Shown: positions 3,720-15,500 of the stretch, piece by piece
Numbering within the stretch: the stretch's first letter is position 1
Layout of the letters: each line of letters opens with the position of its first letter
DNA from: Catajapyx aquilonaris
Taxonomy: Eukaryota
Direction of reading: 5' to 3'
Length of the DNA: 64,000 nt
NCBI GenBank assembly: GCA_000934665.2
Contig: KZ538835.1
Span: 1 to 64,000 of the forward strand
Position numbers and translations under genes: made by a program
Notes under the pieces: generated by a model
Database searches by the model: none
Told to the model about the DNA's origin: nothing
The model's input: the letters and a program-made list of their open reading frames with translations, nothing else

Positions 3720-4536
3720 CTAGTCTTTCATCTCCCCTTCTTCATCTTCCTCTTCCACGCCACGTATGTATAACACATTGTTGCACCTGATCAGCACCTC
3801 CCCAAGGTTGCCAGTGCAGTTTGATTCTATGAACTCCTCAGTGTTGGCCAACTGCAAAGATACAAATTCAATAAATCTGGGGTTAAAACCAGTGAGTGGC
3901 GAGTGGCAGAAAAGATGCAGTACTTCCGTGAACTAATAAATGCCATCAAAATCTGCTACAGCATTAGTGTGGTCCCAGTGTGCATGGTAAATGCACTACA
4001 CACATACCCAGCCAAAACTCTCATTTAAATGCGTCAAAAACTCCGATAGTGTACACCAGCAATCAGAAAACTCACCTGTAAGTTCATATATCCATCGACA
4101 GAGACAAGATATCCTTTGTATTCGTGGCCCCACTTCAGCTTCACCATTACCAGCTTCCCTGTCAGACTGTTCAGGAAAGGCTTGGGGTTTATTGGCATAG
4201 CCGCCTGAAATTGTATTGCAAAAATTAGTGCATGCTGAATCATCAAATTACTGAAATGCAAGAAACAGCCAGGTGTATACAGATACACATTGAGATCATT
4301 ACTAATATCTCATTAGCCTGGCTGCAATTACTTGAAAAACGTGACGCTCCATTCTGAATAATTATCATAAATTTTTTTCCCAATATTTCATGCTGCATTT
4401 GGATGGCCGGCAGAAAAAGCCGGGTGCTAGGCCTAGCTCCCCAACCGGACTTCACGCGGTCCATTCTCGTCGTACCCATGGCTTCACCATACCAACTTGT
4501 AGTGCGGAACATGCTGCACCCAATACTCACCGCCAT
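3720..4536 (-). CDS. SNRPF: Small nuclear ribonucleoprotein F (SmF)
   Basis: Exons 4536-4531 (ATG GCG|GTGAGT), 4204-4076 and 3851-3720 give [88 protein letters not shown], with both Sm motifs. Confidence 0.97.
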
Positions 4537-4820: not shown

Positions 4821-7800
4821 CAGTAGGAGAAATTCAATGCATTTGTAATTAGGCTTAAATTACGCTGTTTTTGCACAACCAAATGAAACAGTTTTCACTG
4901 AGAGTTGCTCCTGTGATTCATGTAATAGTGATACATTACCGGTTGTCTGTAAATAGTTCTGTATTGCTCCTTTTTAAAAAAATTCAATGTTGAATTTGTC
5001 TCCGGCTCATTACTTAGGCATTTTAGGGTTTAAAAAGAAATGCTTTTCATGTTTAATTTAGTAAAATTCATGGGCTTTGCGTTCTGTGGTATGAAACACT
5101 AAAACATCAACATAACTCATTTTCAAACTTTAATGCATAAGTGAACAAGTAACACACACAGTTTACAGAAATTGTCAGTATGCTTGCATTATTTAGTTAC
5201 TGACCATTTTTTAAATCATATTTGAGCTACTATTCCTTGCACAAAACTGAATAGTACCGACTCCTGTACATCAGTGGTTGATCCCCTTCATTCACAAAAT
5301 TTCTTAACGGCCGTAAGCTCCTGTATGGATTCTTGGTGACAGGAATTATTACTTTAGCACCTGTTGCCTTGATCATACGATGCACATCCTTGGGTGCTTC
5401 GACATCAGTGTAGGCAGTGAGCAGCAGTGGAACTCCCTTCTCGCGCACCAGAGCTGATAAGGACTGGCCCCATGTGTCCTTGCCAGCGAAACCAGTGCTG
5501 CGGTACAACCCACAGTTGAAAGCGCATACCACATCTGGTTGTGTGTAAGCATCGGACTCACAATAATCATGATAAAGGACACCTGATTGGAATTCAATCG
5601 CAAGGTCTACACCCTTTTTGCTACAACTGTAACAACGAAAGTCTTCCGGACATACCCCAGGTGGTATTTCAAATGGTGCAACTTGTGGCCCAACAAACAC
5701 AAGTCGGAGTGATGTTAATGCTGGCAGGAGATGAAAAATAAAGATATCCCATTTTGATATGGCATCACCTTCAAATTCCAGCTCAGCCCCAACCAAGTGT
5801 ATGACCAGTCTGCTTGTTGTGCTGAGATCTCGGCATTGTTGCAGGGCATGCAGTACGGTTAAAGGGTATGAAGCTAGTTCTGTCAGGCATGAAAACAGTA
5901 CAGAACCCATTGACATGATGGATGGACCACCCATCAAACGCATGACCAGCAACTCTTTCATGCTCCCAGGTAGTGGCTCATATTTCTTTTCACATTTTGT
6001 TGGCAAATGTGGATCAGGTAGCCCATACTTATGCTGATAGATTGCTATATCGACCCACACCTTCAATTGGTCACATTTGTGTGGGGCATCACGATGCTCT
6101 TTGCAGAAATTGACTGCATTACAATTAATGCATGTGACCACACCTTGTGGCGGATATGTTTCTCTGCATACATAGCAACATTTTGGAAAGAGGAACATCT
6201 CGCGCTCGTATGGCTCTAAAGGCCGGCCCAATGCCTCACCGCAACTTTGGACAGCATCGAACCGCATCTTACGCCATTGCTCCCATCCAACATTTGGCCC
6301 ACCTGACAATACATGGCTTTTACCCTGTTTGGCTGTAAAATCTCGCACCCATCGGCACAATGACTTATGCTGGCTCCAGTGTTGCTTCTGATGCTCAGGA
6401 CTGCAGTAACATATCAGCTGGCAGGCACCACAAGTCTTCAATTTTACTGCAGAATCCTGAAGCGCCTTGCACACATGACATGCATTCGGGAGGTACACAG
6501 GCCGGCATGTGATGGTATCCTCATCTTCATCATCATCTGGCAGTGCGTCTTTCGGAGGTGTGACAACCTTGCTTTTCATCTGCTGCGGCTGCTTGGATCC
6601 ATGCTTCTTTTGACGACTTCTCTTGCTGTCCATTCTGCGGAAGAACACATAGCGCATTAACACTGTTTTGTAACCTGCACGTAAGCAAGCGTACCGTATA
6701 CACAATGTTGAGTTAGTCCCCCAGCCAAATCTTGAACCCCGCAACGCTTGGGCCTGTGCTAAAGAAGAGTCAAGAGCCGCACCATTCTAAAAATAAAGCA
6801 CCTCCTTTTGGCTCCAATCCCTGGGATGACGCTGAAAGACAACCCCTCATGTAACGCACATACTGTATGTGCAGTGCCATGTGCAGCACAAATTACATAC
6901 AAATTGCAATTGTTCTTATTTTTTATTTATTTGTATTTGTATGAATATAAGTTTGAAGCCCCCGCTTTCTCTCCTCTTGTGGTCCATCCCACCACCCACA
7001 GGCAGCTGCCAGCTGCTCGGATAACCGGAAAAGGGGGGGTGCGGGGGGTTACAATGGGCGCACCTGGGAGGCGGACAAAAACTCCCCGTTTGAAATCCCT
7101 TGGTCCGTTGGTGCAGCCCAGTTAGAGACCCCCACCAAAAAAAAGTGCTTCTTCTTCTGCCTTGCCTGGCCGACCATGGTTGACCCGAATATCCTGCTGA
7201 ATCGATATGGTGCGTGACCTCAACCGCCTTTTTTATACACTTTGGCTACACCCCCGCTGAGAGCTGCGCGGCACAGAGTCAACAACATACCCTGAGGAGG
7301 GTGTGTGGCCTTCGAGAGGTGCGGTCACGGATTATAAGCCGGTCCAGCTGATTAGTCATAGGCTTTGTTGTGCTTTAGGGGTCGGGTGTCTCATCCTGTC
7401 ACGCGGATGACTAGTCCGCCGGGAGCTAGAGAGCAGCAGCCTTTGTCATTGCCAGTCTGGAGCTGGGTTGCTTCTGAGGTGTCTGTGCAGTTGGACAGTG
7501 CTGGATATGGATGTGGGAAGGGCTGTCAGGAGGTGAGCATATGTCCAGGTCCACTTATGTGCTTCAATGTTGGTGTACCAACACAGATTAGAGGTTGTCA
7601 TTGCGTTATTAGATGGATAATCGAGGCAGACCATGTCATGTGCGGATAATGCAACTGTCAATTAATTTTGAAAACACAGTGACTATTCAGAGGTGTGCAC
7701 ATACAACAGTTGTAACATTAACGGTTACTTACTTTAAATATTCCAGTTCCATGACATTGCAATAATTTAGACATTACTGTAGGTTACTTGTAGGTTTATT

Positions 7801-8790
7801 TTATTATAATAATTGATAAATAAGTGTAGTACACATTACGTCATCGCTGGCTAGAAATGAATGAATGAATGAATGAATAAATAATAAATGATAGGCTACG
7901 GATTGGAAATGAAGGAAGAGTACCGGTACGCATAGTGAAATCACATCTGCACATCCAACTTAATGCATCCCATATCCATTTTGTGTGTATAAAGATGCTG
8001 AATATATTTAAACGTTGCGAACAATAATTTTTTGCAAAGAACTGGTAGTGAGAAGTAAAAATTTTGTTGGTATGGCACTGTGCATCCATATTATCTGGTT
8101 CTGAAATCTAGGTTGCTACAAAAGTGTGACACTTTCTGCGTTTTCTTCTGAGCAAGTTTTGGTTGAGAGCAATTTTTATTAGACCATATGATTGTAATGA
8201 AGAGTGTTTTGGGGCAATTAAAAAAATTTGCTTGGTTGAGCTTCTACAGTGTGGAAAACAGACTCTCCTATTTTGAATGCTTGTAGAAATGATTACTCCG
8301 TAGGCATCGTTAAAAGTTACTTTTCATAAGCTAGGTTCTCTTTTTTTTAAGGGCACACTTTACACATCAACTGGTGCATACTGCATTTATTTGTTCTTCT
8401 GTCTTAGGGTTTATTCATATGCCAAGGGAATCACCAAAAGCATAATGTCTTTGACTACATTTATCAATAAGGTTGACAGGGAAATACTTTTCATATACCA
8501 TAAGTGAGGCATTATGTTGTGAAATATATTTTTAATTGAGTGAATACTATTTTCAAATGGCAGTGTGAGTAGTAGATTGTGATGATGTTGATGTGTTTGA
8601 GCAGTTTGTAATTCTATCAAAGTAGATAAGGTGTGGTTTTCCTGTCCTGTTTGTAACGGTTTTTGTTCAAGCTGAAGTTTGAAAGTGAAAGCACATTTGT
8701 GTTTGGAATTGCTGTTGTTGTTACGAGAATTATTATTGTAATAATTTCTAAGCATTTTTAAACTTACGATTTTATTCTATAATAATAATA

Positions 8791-8853
<63 letters not shown>

Positions 8854-11772
8854 GGCTATCAAGTGATAGGCCAGTGGCCTCTAGAAAATACCTTATAAAT
8901 TCCTGAGTTGATTAATCCTTGCACTGTTGATATAGTTTGATGTAATGGAGAAGGTCTCTATAACAATTGCATAATATAATATGCCTGCCCCTTCTGCATG
9001 TGACATACCATGAAAAACCCATGTGCAATATTTACTGTAATTCTATTGGTAAGGATAACAAATTGCATTCAGATGTGAAACATGATATAGTTCATTATAC
9101 TGGTAATACTGTACAAGTGTACATGTGTCAAGTCAGCAACAAAGTGTCATCTGATACACACTTGCTTTGAAGTAGCTGATGCTGATTTAGCATCACAGGA
9201 ATCATTTTCAGCAAAGACTGCACTTCCTTCTCCAGGATGTCACATGATATGCATGTCACATGCAATGTTGTGATAAAGAGAAACAAGAGTGTGGGAGTAA
9301 CAAGATATAAATCATCAAGGCTATTTCAGGTCATATGAGCTTTGTTGGAGTGGTTCCTCAATGGTGTTTTCTGAAGTAGATAACTCTAGAACTCAGTCCT
9401 TTTATGAAATTGTAACAAAAGGGAAGAGTATATGTGTTTTGAAAACTGATTTTGGCCCAATTAATTCCTGCGATTTTGTGCCTAGGTAACTAATTGACAA
9501 ATGCTTCCAGTTGCATATACCTTTTCAGCTGACTGTAGAGAGTGAATAGTTTTCAAGTATATTGCTATCACAAATGGTGTCAGGAATTATGGGGAAATTG
9601 CCAAATATTTCTGTTAATGTGTGAGATAGACTCAAATTGGAACATTTTAAAATGTGGTTGCAGGAGCTAGTGTTCTAGAAAAGGGTGCTTGGCCCATGTT
9701 CACAAGCTGATGAGGACTAGGATTTTTGAGCAAATTCGAGACATTTTAGCATCAGCGAGACGTCAGCCGATGAAGGGGATGCAAGAATTGGCTTGTTGGT
9801 CGTGAAAATGTGTGGACACACCTTGACGCCCACAAAACGTTAATATTCATTCAACTACAAATGAAGAGAGAAATTCATCAGGCACACCTGACCATACTTT
9901 GCTCTTGACATGTCTTTTTCTCTGTGGCTTTTAGGGGCAGTGTGCACCTGCGCAACATTGGGAGCAGCCACAAGAGCTTGAGCATGGTGATATCCCAGCT
10001 GAGAGATGTTAAATCAACCTACAAGGGGTTCATCAATGCTCAGAATATGGCTGCCCAGGACATAATGAAGTGGGCTCACCAAGGCGAAAACTGTGCAATC
10101 AAGGATGTGTGTTCTCACATGGCTGACCTGTTTGCTCTCTGGGCTGAGATACAAAAGGAACTCCTAGGTATGTAAGGCTGCACACCTTGTTTTGAATGAC
10201 TGGAATTAATGATAATTTTTCCAGAATGTGTGAAGCAGTTTCGTATGCAGTTTGAGATGATCCTGGAAGGCGAGAGGAGCATGGACCGAGCTCGGGAGAA
10301 TCTGGAACAGTGTGAACAGAAGAGAATCAAGGTGAAGAAGGAGCTCAACAAGGCAACAAGGCGCTCTGAGGGAGGTCAGATTGAGGACCTGAAGCTTCGA
10401 TTGGCTGATACTGAAAAAGCAACTACCATGGCCCATCTAGCAGGTATATGCTAGTAGAATAGCAGTTTGTTAACCTCTTCTGTTCAGGTTAACACTTTAA
10501 TTAGTGTATTATATGTGGTGTTCACCTCCCAATAAATTATGATAATTGAAGCAAGTTGTAATTTTTAAGTTGCTTGTAATGGAAACATATATCTTTGAAA
10601 GTTGTTTTTGAACATATGAGGCACAAATTTGCAGTAACTGGACTTTTATGTCTGAAAATTATTGGACACATAATTTACATTGCTGAGAAGAATATTTCTG
10701 ATGCCTTATGATAAAACTATTTCATATTTTGTTTATGTATGTTTATTTTATAGTGGTCCTCAAAATGGAATGTTTTCTGACTTGCAGTTGTCCAAAGTTC
10801 AAAAGACAATGAGACTACCAAACTAATCCGCTTGCGCAAGGGTCTCCTGAAACTGTCTGACGTCTACTGTGATGTAGGCCTCAAGTGTCAAGTTGTGTTT
10901 GATGCTCAGCGGGATATAGCTCGAGAGATTCCATCCCCACAGCAAGAAGAAGTGTTTCAGATGAAGTATTCAGGCTTTGCAGCTACAAAGCAAGCAGCCC
11001 TGAAAGCCAAGGAGCATATACAGTTGATGGGAAGGCCTTCCCCTATGTATTCGCCCACTGCCCCTCCCGGACCAGCAGGACATGCTTCAGGCAGACACAG
11101 TCGTGGGAGTAGCAGCGACCCACCGCCACCATACAGTGGGGCATACTCTTCACCAGATTCGGCGGATGGCTGCTCAAGGAGATCCCTAGGGTGCACTGGT
11201 GGGGATTCCAGATGCCAAGTTTGTCCTAGAGGGTAAGTGAAAATGTGTCTTTGTGTCTGTAATAAAATGGTGAGATTGCATTCCATTTGTTACTAATACA
11301 ATTTTCTGGAATAAGGACCCTTCAATAAACATTGAGTCGGATTTTCTTTTTCTAATTAATAAATCACACGACACTTTTAAGTTGTTATTGTGCCCACTTT
11401 ATGCTCTTCTCAAGTTGAACAATGCACTGTAATATAATGTGAAGTGTAAAATTCCTTTAGGTTTAACAAGATCTCCAGAAAAGCACTTTCTAGACTTTGA
11501 ACAAAAATATGGCTTACGATGGGAAACTATTCCAATTAATATCATGGTGGAGCTTGATTGAGATTGTCATCTAGACAACCTCTCTTTGCCCTGTTCTAAC
11601 AGATAACTATCATTTCAGGTTTGGATGTAATGTGTCACCTACAAATGGAATGTCTCCAACAATGTCTCCACCTCCAGGATCCCCGACCCCAAGATATTCC
11701 AATGTGGATGATCCAAACACACCTTCTCAGCAGCTGCTCTATCCAACATTCAATGATATGAAGTTGGGATGA
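4810..11772 (+). CDS. Pil1/Lsp1-like (eisosome-type) BAR-domain protein with Pro/Ser-rich tail, 361 aa
   Basis: Exons 4810-4844 (inferred), 9935-10167, 10225-10443, 10788-11232 and 11619-11772 total 1086 nt with matching phases. Helical core HKSLSMVISQLRDVK...AAQDIMKWAHQGENCAIKDV...FRMQFEMILEGERSMDRARE...MKYSGFAATKQAALKA is colinear with yeast Pil1 as recalled. Exons 2-5 are solid. Exon 1 rests on phase compatibility and a weak donor (TT|GTAATT). Confidence 0.8.
5230..6633 (-). CDS. MYND zinc-finger protein with MSS51-like C-terminal domain, single coding exon, 467 aa
   Basis: ATG at 6633 follows a splice acceptor (ttccgcag|A ATG). MYND finger CHVC...CGAC..CYCSPEHQKQHWSQHKSLC, a second Cys cluster CYVC...CINC...FCKEH, and MSS51-type motifs VIHLVGAE, LVFVGP, YHDY, PDVVCAFNCG, DTW, PLLLTAYT, NPYRS. 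Confidence 0.88.
   Translation of the reverse strand: MDSKRSRQKKHGSKQPQQMKSKVVTPPKDALPDDDEDEDTITCRPVYLPNACHVCKALQDSAVKLKTCGACQLICYCSPEHQKQHWSQHKSLCRWVRDFTAKQGKSHVLSGGPNVGWEQWRKMRFDAVQSCGEALGRPLEPYEREMFLFPKCCYVCRETYPPQGVVTCINCNAVNFCKEHRDAPHKCDQLKVWVDIAIYQHKYGLPDPHLPTKCEKKYEPLPGSMKELLVMRLMGGPSIMSMGSVLFSCLTELASYPLTVLHALQQCRDLSTTSRLVIHLVGAELEFEGDAISKWDIFIFHLLPALTSLRLVFVGPQVAPFEIPPGVCPEDFRCYSCSKKGVDLAIEFQSGVLYHDYCESDAYTQPDVVCAFNCGLYRSTGFAGKDTWGQSLSALVREKGVPLLLTAYTDVEAPKDVHRMIKATGAKVIIPVTKNPYRSLRPLRNFVNEGDQPLMYRSRYYSVLCKE
8779..8852. repeat. (AAT)n microsatellite
   Basis: About 24 AAT units with one AGT interruption. Confidence 0.97.
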
Positions 11773-12505: not shown

Positions 12506-15500
12506 TCAGTTGTTCCTTTGGCTCCTTCCAGAGTGAGCATTCTTCCTCAGGATGAGTTTGGCATTTTCGTCGATGAGCTGCATTACCTTTGACTTGATAG
12601 GGTAACTGTCTGGGATCTTGGGACTAACCACTGTCCTCTGAAGATAGTACCTGTCATAGAAAAGTTTAAGGCATCAGTATAAGCGCAGGTTTTTTTTCTT
12701 CACTTTTTGCAGCAGTCTAAAATGTGTTTGAACACAAGAAATTACTGAAGTTTTATTCTGACCTGAACTCCTCCTGAAAGTTGGTCCGGATGAATTCCAG
12801 GACAGCCCCAGAGCTCTGCATAAGTGTTCTGAGCACAAATAGGTGCTGGTAGACCAACACAGCCTGACTTGGAGTCAGGGATCTTGCCTTGGCTGGATAG
12901 AGGAAGCTCAGCAGCTGCATGGTGGTGCAGTGCAGGAACCGATCCCATTTGATTCCATTCATCATTTTCGATATGCTGGGACAAGCCTTCTCTTGCGTCA
13001 GCTTAATGACCATTAGCAGCACTTCGTATACAACTGACATGGAACTGTTGATGACCTCTGCCAGCAGTTTGATTGTCTCTGCTTCAGGCAAGTTCTCCCA
13101 TGCAGTACTGACAAACTCATGGTAGTCATCCAACATGTGCTGACAGGTGTTGCGAAAGGGCATGGGGATTTCTGGCATCACAAACAGAAGAGACAGAAGG
13201 TGCTGGACTAGGGTGCCTCGGTTGTACTTCATCATCTGTTGAAACCATTTAAAATGTAAAAAATACACGTATTAATGGAGTCATGTGCAAGTGGTGTGCT
13301 ATACTGTAAATAGGTATGTGAATGTTCTGTGAATGTCCCTACACTGGGTGACCCTATAGACATCCCCTGTGTAAAGTACACGTCTTACATAATGCTGGAC
13401 TGATTCGCTCACATTATGCATGCAATGATGTCATGGATGTAAGCTTGCAAGCTCAATAACCCACAAGCGAAAAGTCATGCAGCCAATAATAATTATTTAT
13501 TAGCCCATTACTCATCTCCCACAGCCTTTTGCGGTTTCTTCAGTATGCCTTTCTGGAGCTCAAAGCCCTCAGTATATGGTAGCATGAGTAAGTCGCTCTC
13601 TCAGATATATTTCCGCATTAAATCAATTCCTATTGATGAATAAAAATGACACTACCATACAGGGGGACCTGTGGACTACGAATGAAGTACTGTACATCCT
13701 GGACGACTTCTAATCTATTGCTGATCTCGCTTTTTTTCTTTTTCCTTGTAACCATCCATTATCTAGATACTTAGCATGTTTATTACGTGCAATATTACCT
13801 GACGTAAGATATCAGTTGCCCAGATCCAAGGAAGTATTAGGTGTTCTTGTGAGGGTCAGGCCAAGAATAGAGGCATGTTATTTGCGAACATACTCAATCA
13901 TCCGTATCCCATTAGAGGGCCGAGTCCGATTACAGAGTGGGCGGACAAGGTTGGTATTATTTTTATAGTCTGGGTGCGAACTATCAGACCTTTTCTTGGA
14001 CCGTAACGCGGGCAAAGTCCATTCTGACACGCGTGACGAAAAGTATGAAACATGCTGGAGATGGCCCACCTGCAGCTTTGGCATGAGTGCATCCGTGTCC
14101 GTCAACATGATACGCAGCGTGTCGAGAATCAGAACCATCATTTCCAGTTGGTCCTCCGTAGTCGTCAGTATCTTCTCTTGAGACACTCGCGACGTCGGGG
14201 CTGTGGTCGGCAACTGCTTTTGGAAAAGCCTCAACAAATAGTGGTACACAGTTTGATCCTGCAATGTAACCCAAGTCATGTATTGTACACGCCATTAAAA
14301 TCGGCATTACAGCTGAGTACCTTCCAGAATATGCCTTTGAGAGCGTAGTTCCTTTCCGTTCCCTGATAGAGCTCGACCAGCAGGTCAAAGGTCTGCTCCA
14401 TGTTGTTGTTCGGGTCGTGAAGGTCCTCCAAGAACTGCTCGTAGATGAGCTGCAGTTGATGAGGACTTGCATCTCCCAACGTGGGTGCTGGAGTGTTTCG
14501 TTCCAGTGACAGTGTGGAGCTCTGGGAACAAAGCGTGTCATAAGCTACATTTTTTTGACTGAAACACCGGTTCCATATACTCACAAGCAGGCAGCAGTTC
14601 CAGGTGTTGTGCAAATAAGTAAAAGTCGGTGAGTCGCGCAGAACAACGTAAATGTGAACCTCCTTGTACGGCTGTAAAGGCAACAGCGTTGACTGCATCA
14701 ACGCCTTCAGTCCTCCCTTGTACAACCTGCCAATCGAACATTTCTGTCAGACACTGTTTTTGCAAATGTCATAAGTCATACGTACTCGATTGGAGCCAGC
14801 TTGATCTCCTTTTTGACAGGCACGGCCATTGCGCTGTAGGGCCTCTGAGGGACCTTCTTCTTGGCCTGAGGCTTTTCCAGGACACTCAAAGACCGCGGTA
14901 TTCTCAGAATGAGCTCAGAGTCTTCCTCCAGCCGGTCCAGCAATGGCTTCACTTCCTCCTCCGTCTTGCTCTTAGACATTTGATGGTCCGTGTCCAGTGA
15001 CCTGGATGACCCGCTGCGTCCAAGCTTCCCCAGCATGGCTCCCAAGACAGATGATGACCTCGGAGGATGCCCCTTTCTGTCACTCTCAGGAGACTTGCCG
15101 GAAACCATGGGTTCTTCGGGATGGCTGATGGTGGACACAGTCTGCTTCTGCTGGGTGGTCCATCCCATAGCGGCCAAAGGAAGCAGGGCGGCCACGGCTG
15201 TCGAGTCCGCGACTTTGCTGCTGGCAGTCTCAGGCACGGTCTCTGGTACAGGCAGCGATACCAGCACATCAGGGGTCTCGTAGTGCACGCAAATGTGCTG
15301 AGAATTTTCTCGATCGTTGCCTCGGAGGAACTCTGGATACTCGTGAATCTGAAATGGCAGGGTTTCACTCTCAATGGCTGAATTATTGTTATTAAGAAAA
15401 ATGAGTTTCTCCTTGACATTTAGTGCAAGTCAATTGATGCTCGGGCGGTGCCAGGGCTTGTACAGTATATCCGAATTCTCAATAACTGGATCGATTCATA

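Follow-up and report, generated by a model that had tools for sequence, protein, structure and literature searches.

The locus described here raises the question of whether an animal can carry a scaffold of the kind known from yeast eisosomes, joined to a tail that recruits ubiquitin ligases and the ESCRT complexes of endosomal sorting, and which of the short motifs in such a tail are more than products of its composition. It lies in a stretch of 64,000 nucleotides from Catajapyx aquilonaris (GCA_000934665.2, contig KZ538835.1, positions 1 to 64,000 of the forward strand), hereafter called the window. Positions 7507-11772 on the plus strand are a five-exon gene, and its product is a protein of 358 amino acids (aa) that belongs to an uncharacterised animal family. 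An earlier reading of the DNA letters and their translations (the sequence-only reading) had called this product a Pil1-like protein and had pointed to PTAP, PPxY and LYP motifs in its tail as signs of a BAR scaffold coupled to ubiquitin ligase and ESCRT recruitment. We consider it probable that the protein is a Pil1/Lsp1-type BAR scaffold with a disordered Pro/Ser-rich tail, in which a PPPY motif most likely docks a Nedd4-family ligase and accessory motifs vary by lineage. The coding exons and the three motifs are listed below; for PTAP, DPPPPYS and LLYPTF, coordinates and frames were found as previously read, including the imperfect F (for L) of the last. X1 denotes a public run described after the list.

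7507..7532, plus strand: coding exon 1, start codon at 7507, encoding MDVGRAVR and two bases of the next codon; placed by homology and splice signals
9935..10167, plus strand: coding exon 2, open frame, start of the BAR-like domain; joint 10167/10225 in the X1 contig
10225..10443, plus strand: coding exon 3, open frame, middle of the BAR-like domain; joints 10167/10225 and 10443/10788 in the X1 contig
10788..11232, plus strand: coding exon 4, open frame, last stretch of the BAR-like domain (to ~11030), then the beginning of the tail; joints in the X1 contig
11619..11772, plus strand: coding exon 5, open frame, end of the tail and TGA stop (11770-11772); joint 11232/11619 in the X1 contig
11054..11065, plus strand: PTAP (CCC ACT GCC CCT), in frame in exon 4
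11120..11134, plus strand: PPPPY, of the group-I WW ligand type, in frame in exon 4, with D before (11117-11119) and S after (11135-11137)
11734..11751, plus strand: LLYPTF, in frame in exon 5, six residues before the C-terminus

X1 is the one public run that was found with this DNA; the kind of run is not on record, and none is on record as RNA. A 1610-nucleotide contig of X1 aligned to the gene with 0 mismatches, was spliced at 10167|10225, 10443|10788 and 11232|11619, so that precisely the three introns separating exons 2 to 5 are missing, and extended as 3' untranslated region to at least 12329. From this splicing across exons 2-5 it follows that the tail, including the C-terminal LLYPTFNDMKLG and the stop, is part of a spliced, transcript-like molecule. 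The introns are GT-AG, as judged from the sequence and from translation of candidate exons. The contig overlaps exon 1 by the last 2 bases of the exon only, and the placement of exon 1 is inferred from its being the sole upstream ATG-to-GT candidate with a family-like N-terminus (MxKAxxxxRR) and a phase fitting exon 2. An alternative last exon carrying the GAMGG C-terminal box that is canonical for the family was sought on the plus strand between 11200 and 40000 and was not found, and the X1 contig makes the LYPTF exon the terminal coding exon. When the window was searched by tblastn for a paralogue, only the gene itself was returned. Intron 1 contains a long trinucleotide microsatellite at ~8750-8900, which reads as poly-N, poly-I, poly-L or poly-Y depending on frame and of which 8769-8858 was masked as repeat in the X1 mapping.

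The family to which the protein belongs was reached through its exons. Scanned singly against Pfam, exons 2-5 gave only sub-threshold matches to coiled-coil families. With exon 4 as query, we found 10 longer relatives, in gastropods and other assemblies, and 104 cluster representatives in a library of 1.84 billion proteins. The window protein shares 31-42% identity with all of these relatives in the BAR region and has no close relative among them. A profile of 50 full-length family members (alignment A1) was compared with all PDB chain sequences, and the sole significant matches were Lsp1 (8qb8, E 2.4e-7; 3plt, E 4.5e-7) and Pil1 (8qbf, E 3.4e-4; 8qb7, E 8.9e-4), the next match having an E of 0.6. 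Profile positions 33-252 aligned to residues 65-271 of the Lsp1 chain, that is, nearly the whole domain down to the start of the Y-x-G-x-E-A helix. In addition, Pfam Pil1 was matched at E <= 0.01 by 20 of the 50 family members. An AlphaFold model of the abalone homologue P0122, built with A1, had a mean predicted local distance difference test (pLDDT) score of 83, exceeding 95 at residues 20-245, and consisted of three long helices and a fourth (23-58, 63-131, 137-205 and 224-248), followed by a tail that was unstructured from residue 250. In a Foldseek search of this model against the PDB, ranks 1-6 all went to Lsp1 or Pil1 (E 3e-8 to 6e-7; structural alignments at ~17-20% identity); SNX, F-BAR and further BAR domains ranked lower. 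By profile and predicted model the family is thus confirmed as Pil1-like BAR proteins, as the sequence-only reading had proposed, and the window protein is assigned to it because it is 35-42% identical to the profiled or modelled members.

The N-terminus of the family is conserved in A1 as MxKAxxxxRRSSVxLxSLGxGH. In the window, positions 7525-7532 and 9935-9944 encode RRGS across the exon 1/2 joint, which by its sequence looks like a basophilic-kinase site. Assembly of yeast Pil1 is regulated by phosphorylation, and an N-terminal site of the RRGS type recalls such control.

For the analysis of the tail, defined as everything after the conserved K-Y-T-G anchor that ends the BAR domain, three sets were used. 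The representative set comprised the window protein and the 104 representatives (105 in total), from which 13 were dropped (9 with no anchor, 2 with false anchors, 2 ambiguous); among the 92 anchored representatives, 30 with tails shorter than 60 aa were set aside, and the remaining 62 tails were tested against 500 composition-preserving shuffles. A set of 150 tails, including near-duplicates, was used to count forward and reversed motif patterns. The tree set held 125 of the 186 anchored rows, each having a tail of 60 aa or more and no fewer than 150 aa preceding the tail cut. Tails of assembly-derived relatives may be truncated or frameshifted.

PPxY was present in 57 of the 62 representative tails, compared with 5.8 +/- 2.1 in the shuffles (maximum 13), and in 143 of 150 tails read forward against 23 of 150 reversed. 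Among the tree rows it occurred in 123 of 125, with a single change on the tree. The first proline of PPPY (P260) is invariant in A1, with a share of 1.0, and P261, P262 and Y263 reach 0.96, 0.98 and 0.96, whereas over the BAR domain the top residue has a mean share of 0.54, and over the tail outside PPPY one of 0.25. The sequence-only reading had proposed that the motifs be compared with the divergent background of orthologous tails, and in this comparison PPxY stands out clearly. The family logo is [DE][PL]PPPY[ST][PE], at a median of 18 residues beyond the last helix, and the equivalent region of the P0122 model has a pLDDT of ~50-62 and no secondary structure. PPPY is among the most conserved features of the whole protein, and [DE][PL]PPPY[ST]P is the one tail feature under strong purifying selection.

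These figures bear directly on whether the motifs are functionless products of a Pro/Ser-rich tail. The composition of the window tail invites that explanation, as 22 of its 136 residues are proline, and among 100,000 shuffles of it 12.0% contained PPxY, 5.2% P[TS]AP and 0.8% [LIVM]YPx[LIVF], with the three occurring together in 0.002%; these values overstate significance since the three motifs were chosen post hoc. For PPPY, chance is excluded by its presence in 123 of 125 tails and by column shares of 0.96-1.0, where the remaining tail columns average 0.25. Across the set of 150 tails, moreover, the reversed forms of PPxY, P[TS]AP and the LYP-type motif numbered 23, 0 and 0, against 143, 17 and 38 forward. 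Chance is hence a highly improbable account of the motifs as a set; for the window PTAP and LYPTF taken singly it is a live option, with the balance for each lying roughly in the middle. The caution in the sequence-only reading that short motifs arise by chance in such sequence thus does not apply to PPxY, which is far beyond chance, and keeps its force for PTAP, which is only modestly enriched and not positionally conserved.

The PPPY form is that of a group-I WW-domain ligand, and the motif is very probably functional as such. A link to a WW-domain protein is well founded because PPxY is conserved against a divergent tail, and we infer that a Nedd4-type ligase is the most likely partner. The conservation of PPPY is silent on which partner binds, and the motif class is common to all group-I WW ligands; the PPPY of beta-dystroglycan binds dystrophin, and the PPxY motifs of angiomotin (AMOT) also bind YAP. 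Docking of a WW protein other than a Nedd4 ligase (Yorkie/YAP, Kibra, MAGI, WWOX or dystrophin), which would link the scaffold to the Hippo pathway or the cortical cytoskeleton, was accordingly weighed. We regard it as improbable, since the motifs enriched together with PPPY, namely LYPxL, P(T/S)AP and NPF, belong to trafficking and the ESCRT pathway, which makes a Nedd4 context the better match.

The LYP-type motif exceeds chance and appears to be a true second motif of these proteins. The form [LIVM]YPx[LIVF] was found in 19 of the 62 representative tails, about 20-fold more than in the shuffles (0.9 +/- 0.8, maximum 5), and in 38 of 150 tails forward and none of 150 reversed. Under the strict form [LM]YP.[LI] the count was 15 of 125, compared with 0.53 +/- 0.72 in shuffles (maximum 4), and at 188 Yxx[LIVMF] tail sites proline was the commonest residue at +1 (n=49). 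The broader form occurs in 26 of 125 tree rows with at least 14 changes on the tree. In the nematode group it takes the form [LMI]YPxLPxNPY near the C-terminus, and 8 of the 9 sequences among those listed carry an LYP-type motif; it is also shared within the copepod-like group ([LM]YPVL), bivalves and sacoglossan gastropods, and P often comes directly after it (LYPxLP). The LYPxL type is clearly selected in several clades. In the window, L-Y-P-T-F is followed by N-D-M-K-L-G, with F at the last core position and the next L 6 residues after P, and among the 34 LYP-type instances listed (33 sequences) it is the only one to end in F. What the sequence-only reading had claimed for this motif therefore holds at the level of the family, where it is enriched and shared within clades, and not for the window instance, which is non-canonical.

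A further conserved element, the C-terminal box YE[ED]DLxGAMGGxx[IL], is found from molluscs to chelicerates and insects (e.g. P0122 residues 312-326). It is not always at the extreme end of the protein and so is no strict PDZ ligand. The idea that the C-terminal box and LYPxL replace each other was not supported, as the 2x2 table (44/17/55/9) and an independent-pairs sign test (median p 1) gave no association.

P[TS]AP was seen in 12 of the 62 representative tails, compared with 1.9 +/- 1.4 in the shuffles (maximum 6), and in 17 of 150 tails forward against none of 150 reversed. Four nematode-group sequences contain PPPPY[ST]PTAP together with a C-terminal [LM]YPxL. In two hemipteran-type sequences, PSAP lies 14-23 residues before PPPY in a context (SPYSPGAPSAP) that resembles SPMYSPTAPP of the window. 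In the linker, a more relaxed PxAP is weakly enriched (19 of 143, compared with 3.4 +/- 1.7), with S or T at x in only 6 of the 21 instances counted, and the window PTAP lies in this weakly conserved PxAP linker. A fourth motif, NPF, which is an endocytic motif of the EH-domain type, lies after PPPY in numerous members from crustaceans and insects; it was counted in 35 of 150 tails (0 reversed), with 10 changes on the tree. In copepod-like members (P0012, P0017, P0020, P0037, P0085, P0169 and others) the arrangement is LPPPYSENPPxNPF, the PY motif being followed directly by NPF.

Under the reading that we favour, of a Pil1/Lsp1-type scaffold with a PPPY docking site, the BAR domain would dimerise and bind curved plasma membrane, probably rich in phosphatidylinositol 4,5-bisphosphate (PI(4,5)P2), like the yeast eisosome proteins, to judge from homology and fold. 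Through PPPY, a HECT ubiquitin ligase of the Nedd4 family would be held on the scaffold in the manner of other adaptors with PY motifs, and the docked scaffold might act as a ligase adaptor for membrane cargo, be itself ubiquitinated, or both. The variable LYPxL, PTAP and NPF motifs would in some lineages link the tail to ALIX, TSG101 or EH-domain machinery.

Several observations weigh against this reading or parts of it. Pfam Pil1 (PF13805) was not matched by exons 2-5 of the window when these were scanned one by one, and the scores of family members are borderline with respect to its 27-bit cut-off (P0005 27.8, P0122 25.8, P0002 24.2 and P0004 19.6). The model behind the fold assignment is that of P0122, whose identity to the window protein is 39%. 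PPxY is absent from 5 of the 62 representative tails, all of them unverified gene predictions, and it also binds WW proteins other than Nedd4 ligases. The shuffle tests ignore relatedness, and their counts are thus not probabilities. P[TS]AP occurs in 12 of 125 tree rows and needs no fewer than 9 changes on the tree; its offset from PPPY ranges from -23 to +76, with no fixed place. The conservation of PTAP among orthologues that the sequence-only reading had asked for was accordingly not borne out, the motif being fixed in sub-clades only, though commoner than chance. Finally, the window LYPTF does not follow the canonical [LM]YPx[LI] or YPx3[LI], and it sits where most relatives carry the C-terminal box, which in the window is degenerate (YPTFNDMKLG, 11740-11769). 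The window LYPTF could be either a functional variant or a degraded copy of that box.

A stronger form of the model, put forward in the sequence-only reading, has PPPY-Nedd4, PTAP-TSG101/ESCRT-I and LYPTF-ALIX cooperate while the BAR lattice drives ESCRT-dependent outward budding, vesicle release or repair. The enrichment of all three motif classes over shuffles and the rarity or absence of their reversed forms speak for it, as do the four nematode-group sequences that combine PPPPY[ST]PTAP with a C-terminal [LM]YPxL. Membrane-shaping proteins with such motifs are also known, namely AMOT (PMC4337731) and LITAF (PMC8353527). We nevertheless judge the full model unlikely. All three classes occur together in 3 of 125 rows (the window, P0079 and P0186), most members carrying PPPY only, and neither the unconserved PTAP nor the off-pattern LYPTF of the window favours cooperation. 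Furthermore, the Pil1-type BAR domain of yeast stabilises inward furrows, a topology opposite to outward budding. Of the coupling of a BAR scaffold to ubiquitin ligase and ESCRT, the ligase link is thus strong through the conserved PPPY, and ESCRT recruitment by the window protein is plausible rather than proven. Still more speculative is the proposal that protostomes have an eisosome-like plasma-membrane coat made of a Pil1-type BAR protein whose tail is a late-domain hub (the fixed PPPY with LYPxL, PTAP and NPF added by lineage), coupling furrows or tension sensing to Nedd4 ubiquitination and ESCRT-III scission. We hold this to be doubtful; if true, such a coat would be the cell's own equivalent of budding of the Gag or ARRDC1 type, or else would serve in membrane repair.

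The family matches that bear source names are all from protostomes. Lophotrochozoan members come from many gastropods, a chiton, bivalves, the brachiopod Lingula and the nemertean Tubulanus, and ecdysozoan members include Priapulus and, among chelicerates, horseshoe crabs, ticks and a scorpion. The crustaceans are represented by copepods, an ostracod, a barnacle, decapods and a mantis shrimp, the hemimetabolous insects by a mayfly, a damselfly, cockroaches, termites, a locust, a stick insect and Hemiptera, and the nematodes by Plectus, Dracunculus, Syphacia, Aphelenchus and Aphelenchoides. Among the named family matches none is from vertebrates, Drosophila or C. elegans, groups for which no dedicated search was made; this absence may be the reason that the family went unnoticed. 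In the databases, members are named "uncharacterized" or "F-BAR domain-containing", or bear spurious automatic labels driven by proline-rich sequence. In a FastTree phylogeny of the BAR region the window protein fell close to rows of barnacle and copepod-like type, and the branches there were long. One predicted member, P0021 from Cyprideis torosa (497 aa), has an N-terminal part like the mitochondrial ribosomal protein mS25 (PF05047; UniRef name mS25) joined to the Pil1-like protein, which is probably a gene-model fusion of neighbouring genes.

Our literature searches brought up no account of a Pil1-like family in animals or of Pil1 carrying PY motifs; an earlier mention in the eisosome-evolution literature is possible. 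The fold and the motif classes are known; the combination and the taxonomic range are unreported. A Pil1-type BAR fold with an almost invariant PPPY across protostome phyla would extend the eisosome scaffold to animals, and PPPY would tie an eisosome-type scaffold physically to WW-domain ubiquitin ligases. In yeast, the link between eisosomes and ligases is indirect, through arrestin-related adaptors. The family also illustrates cleanly how short motifs turn over while one of them stays fixed, and the hypothesis is concrete for carriers amenable to RNA interference, such as cockroaches, locusts, ticks and copepods.

Other features of the tail and of the surrounding DNA are listed below.

11171, 11192, 11213, 11222 and 11626 (across the intron), plus strand: five Cys codons clustered in the tail
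5233-6786, minus strand: MSS51-like gene, single-exon open reading frame of 518 aa (MSS51_C, E 2.8e-38; zf-MYND, E 2.5e-8)
4037-4309, minus strand: exon with an LSM (Sm-like) domain (E 8.7e-11)
12756-13235, minus strand: exon of a DUF4551 (PF15087) protein (E 6.8e-18), convergent with the Pil1-like gene

Cys-rich tail stretches are also seen in some relatives, e.g. P0054 and P0016, and a role of the Cys cluster in palmitoylation or metal binding would be a guess. The MSS51-like gene is divergent to the Pil1-like gene, ~700 bp from exon 1, and its nearest Atlas clusters are commonest in Arthropoda. The exon at 4037-4309 probably belongs to a gene for a small nuclear ribonucleoprotein. On the minus strand, another X1 contig covers 12394-12653 and has a loose end, as expected for a spliced transcript of the DUF4551 neighbour.

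Among known systems, yeast Pil1/Lsp1 (PF13805) is the closest, providing the sole significant profile matches and the top six structural matches of the family. The tails of yeast Pil1 and Lsp1 are acidic and are not known to carry PPPY-type motifs, whereas the tail of the present family carries PPPY and other short motifs. A second difference is that the named members of the present family are protostome animals, whereas eisosomes are treated as fungal in the literature consulted (PMC13312728, PMC9045820), where they are compared with caveolae as the animal analogue.

AMOT and AMOTL1 share with the present family the pairing of a membrane-remodelling BAR-like domain with L/PPxY motifs. The PPxY motifs of AMOT are N-terminal to its domain, whereas those of the present family are C-terminal. 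The coiled-coil domain of AMOT/AMOTL1 is taken as unrelated, which makes these proteins functional analogues and not relatives. AMOT p130 has a BAR-like membrane-remodelling domain and PPxY motifs binding NEDD4L (PMC4337731, PMC8368996), and AMOT and AMOTL1 bind NEDD4-family ligases through L/PPxY motifs and aid membrane envelopment (PMC4337731, PMC8368996, PMC6410177). LITAF/SIMPLE is a membrane-curvature protein whose cytosolic part has PPXY (Nedd4) and PTAP (ESCRT-I) motifs, and is a monotopic membrane protein (PMC8353527). The members of the present family differ from it in being, as predicted, peripheral BAR scaffolds.

In ARRDC1 and other arrestin-related adaptors, PPxY works together with PSAP in the recruitment of Nedd4-type ligases and TSG101 at the plasma membrane. 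These proteins are built on an arrestin fold, whereas the scaffold of the present family is a BAR fold. In the nematode group, PPPPY[ST]PTAP and [LM]YPxL are reminiscent of the bipartite late domains of viruses and of the motifs by which syntenin binds ALIX. Compared with the retroviral and filoviral late-domain proteins, the present protein is cellular and has a predicted lattice-forming BAR domain, while sharing with them the three motif classes.

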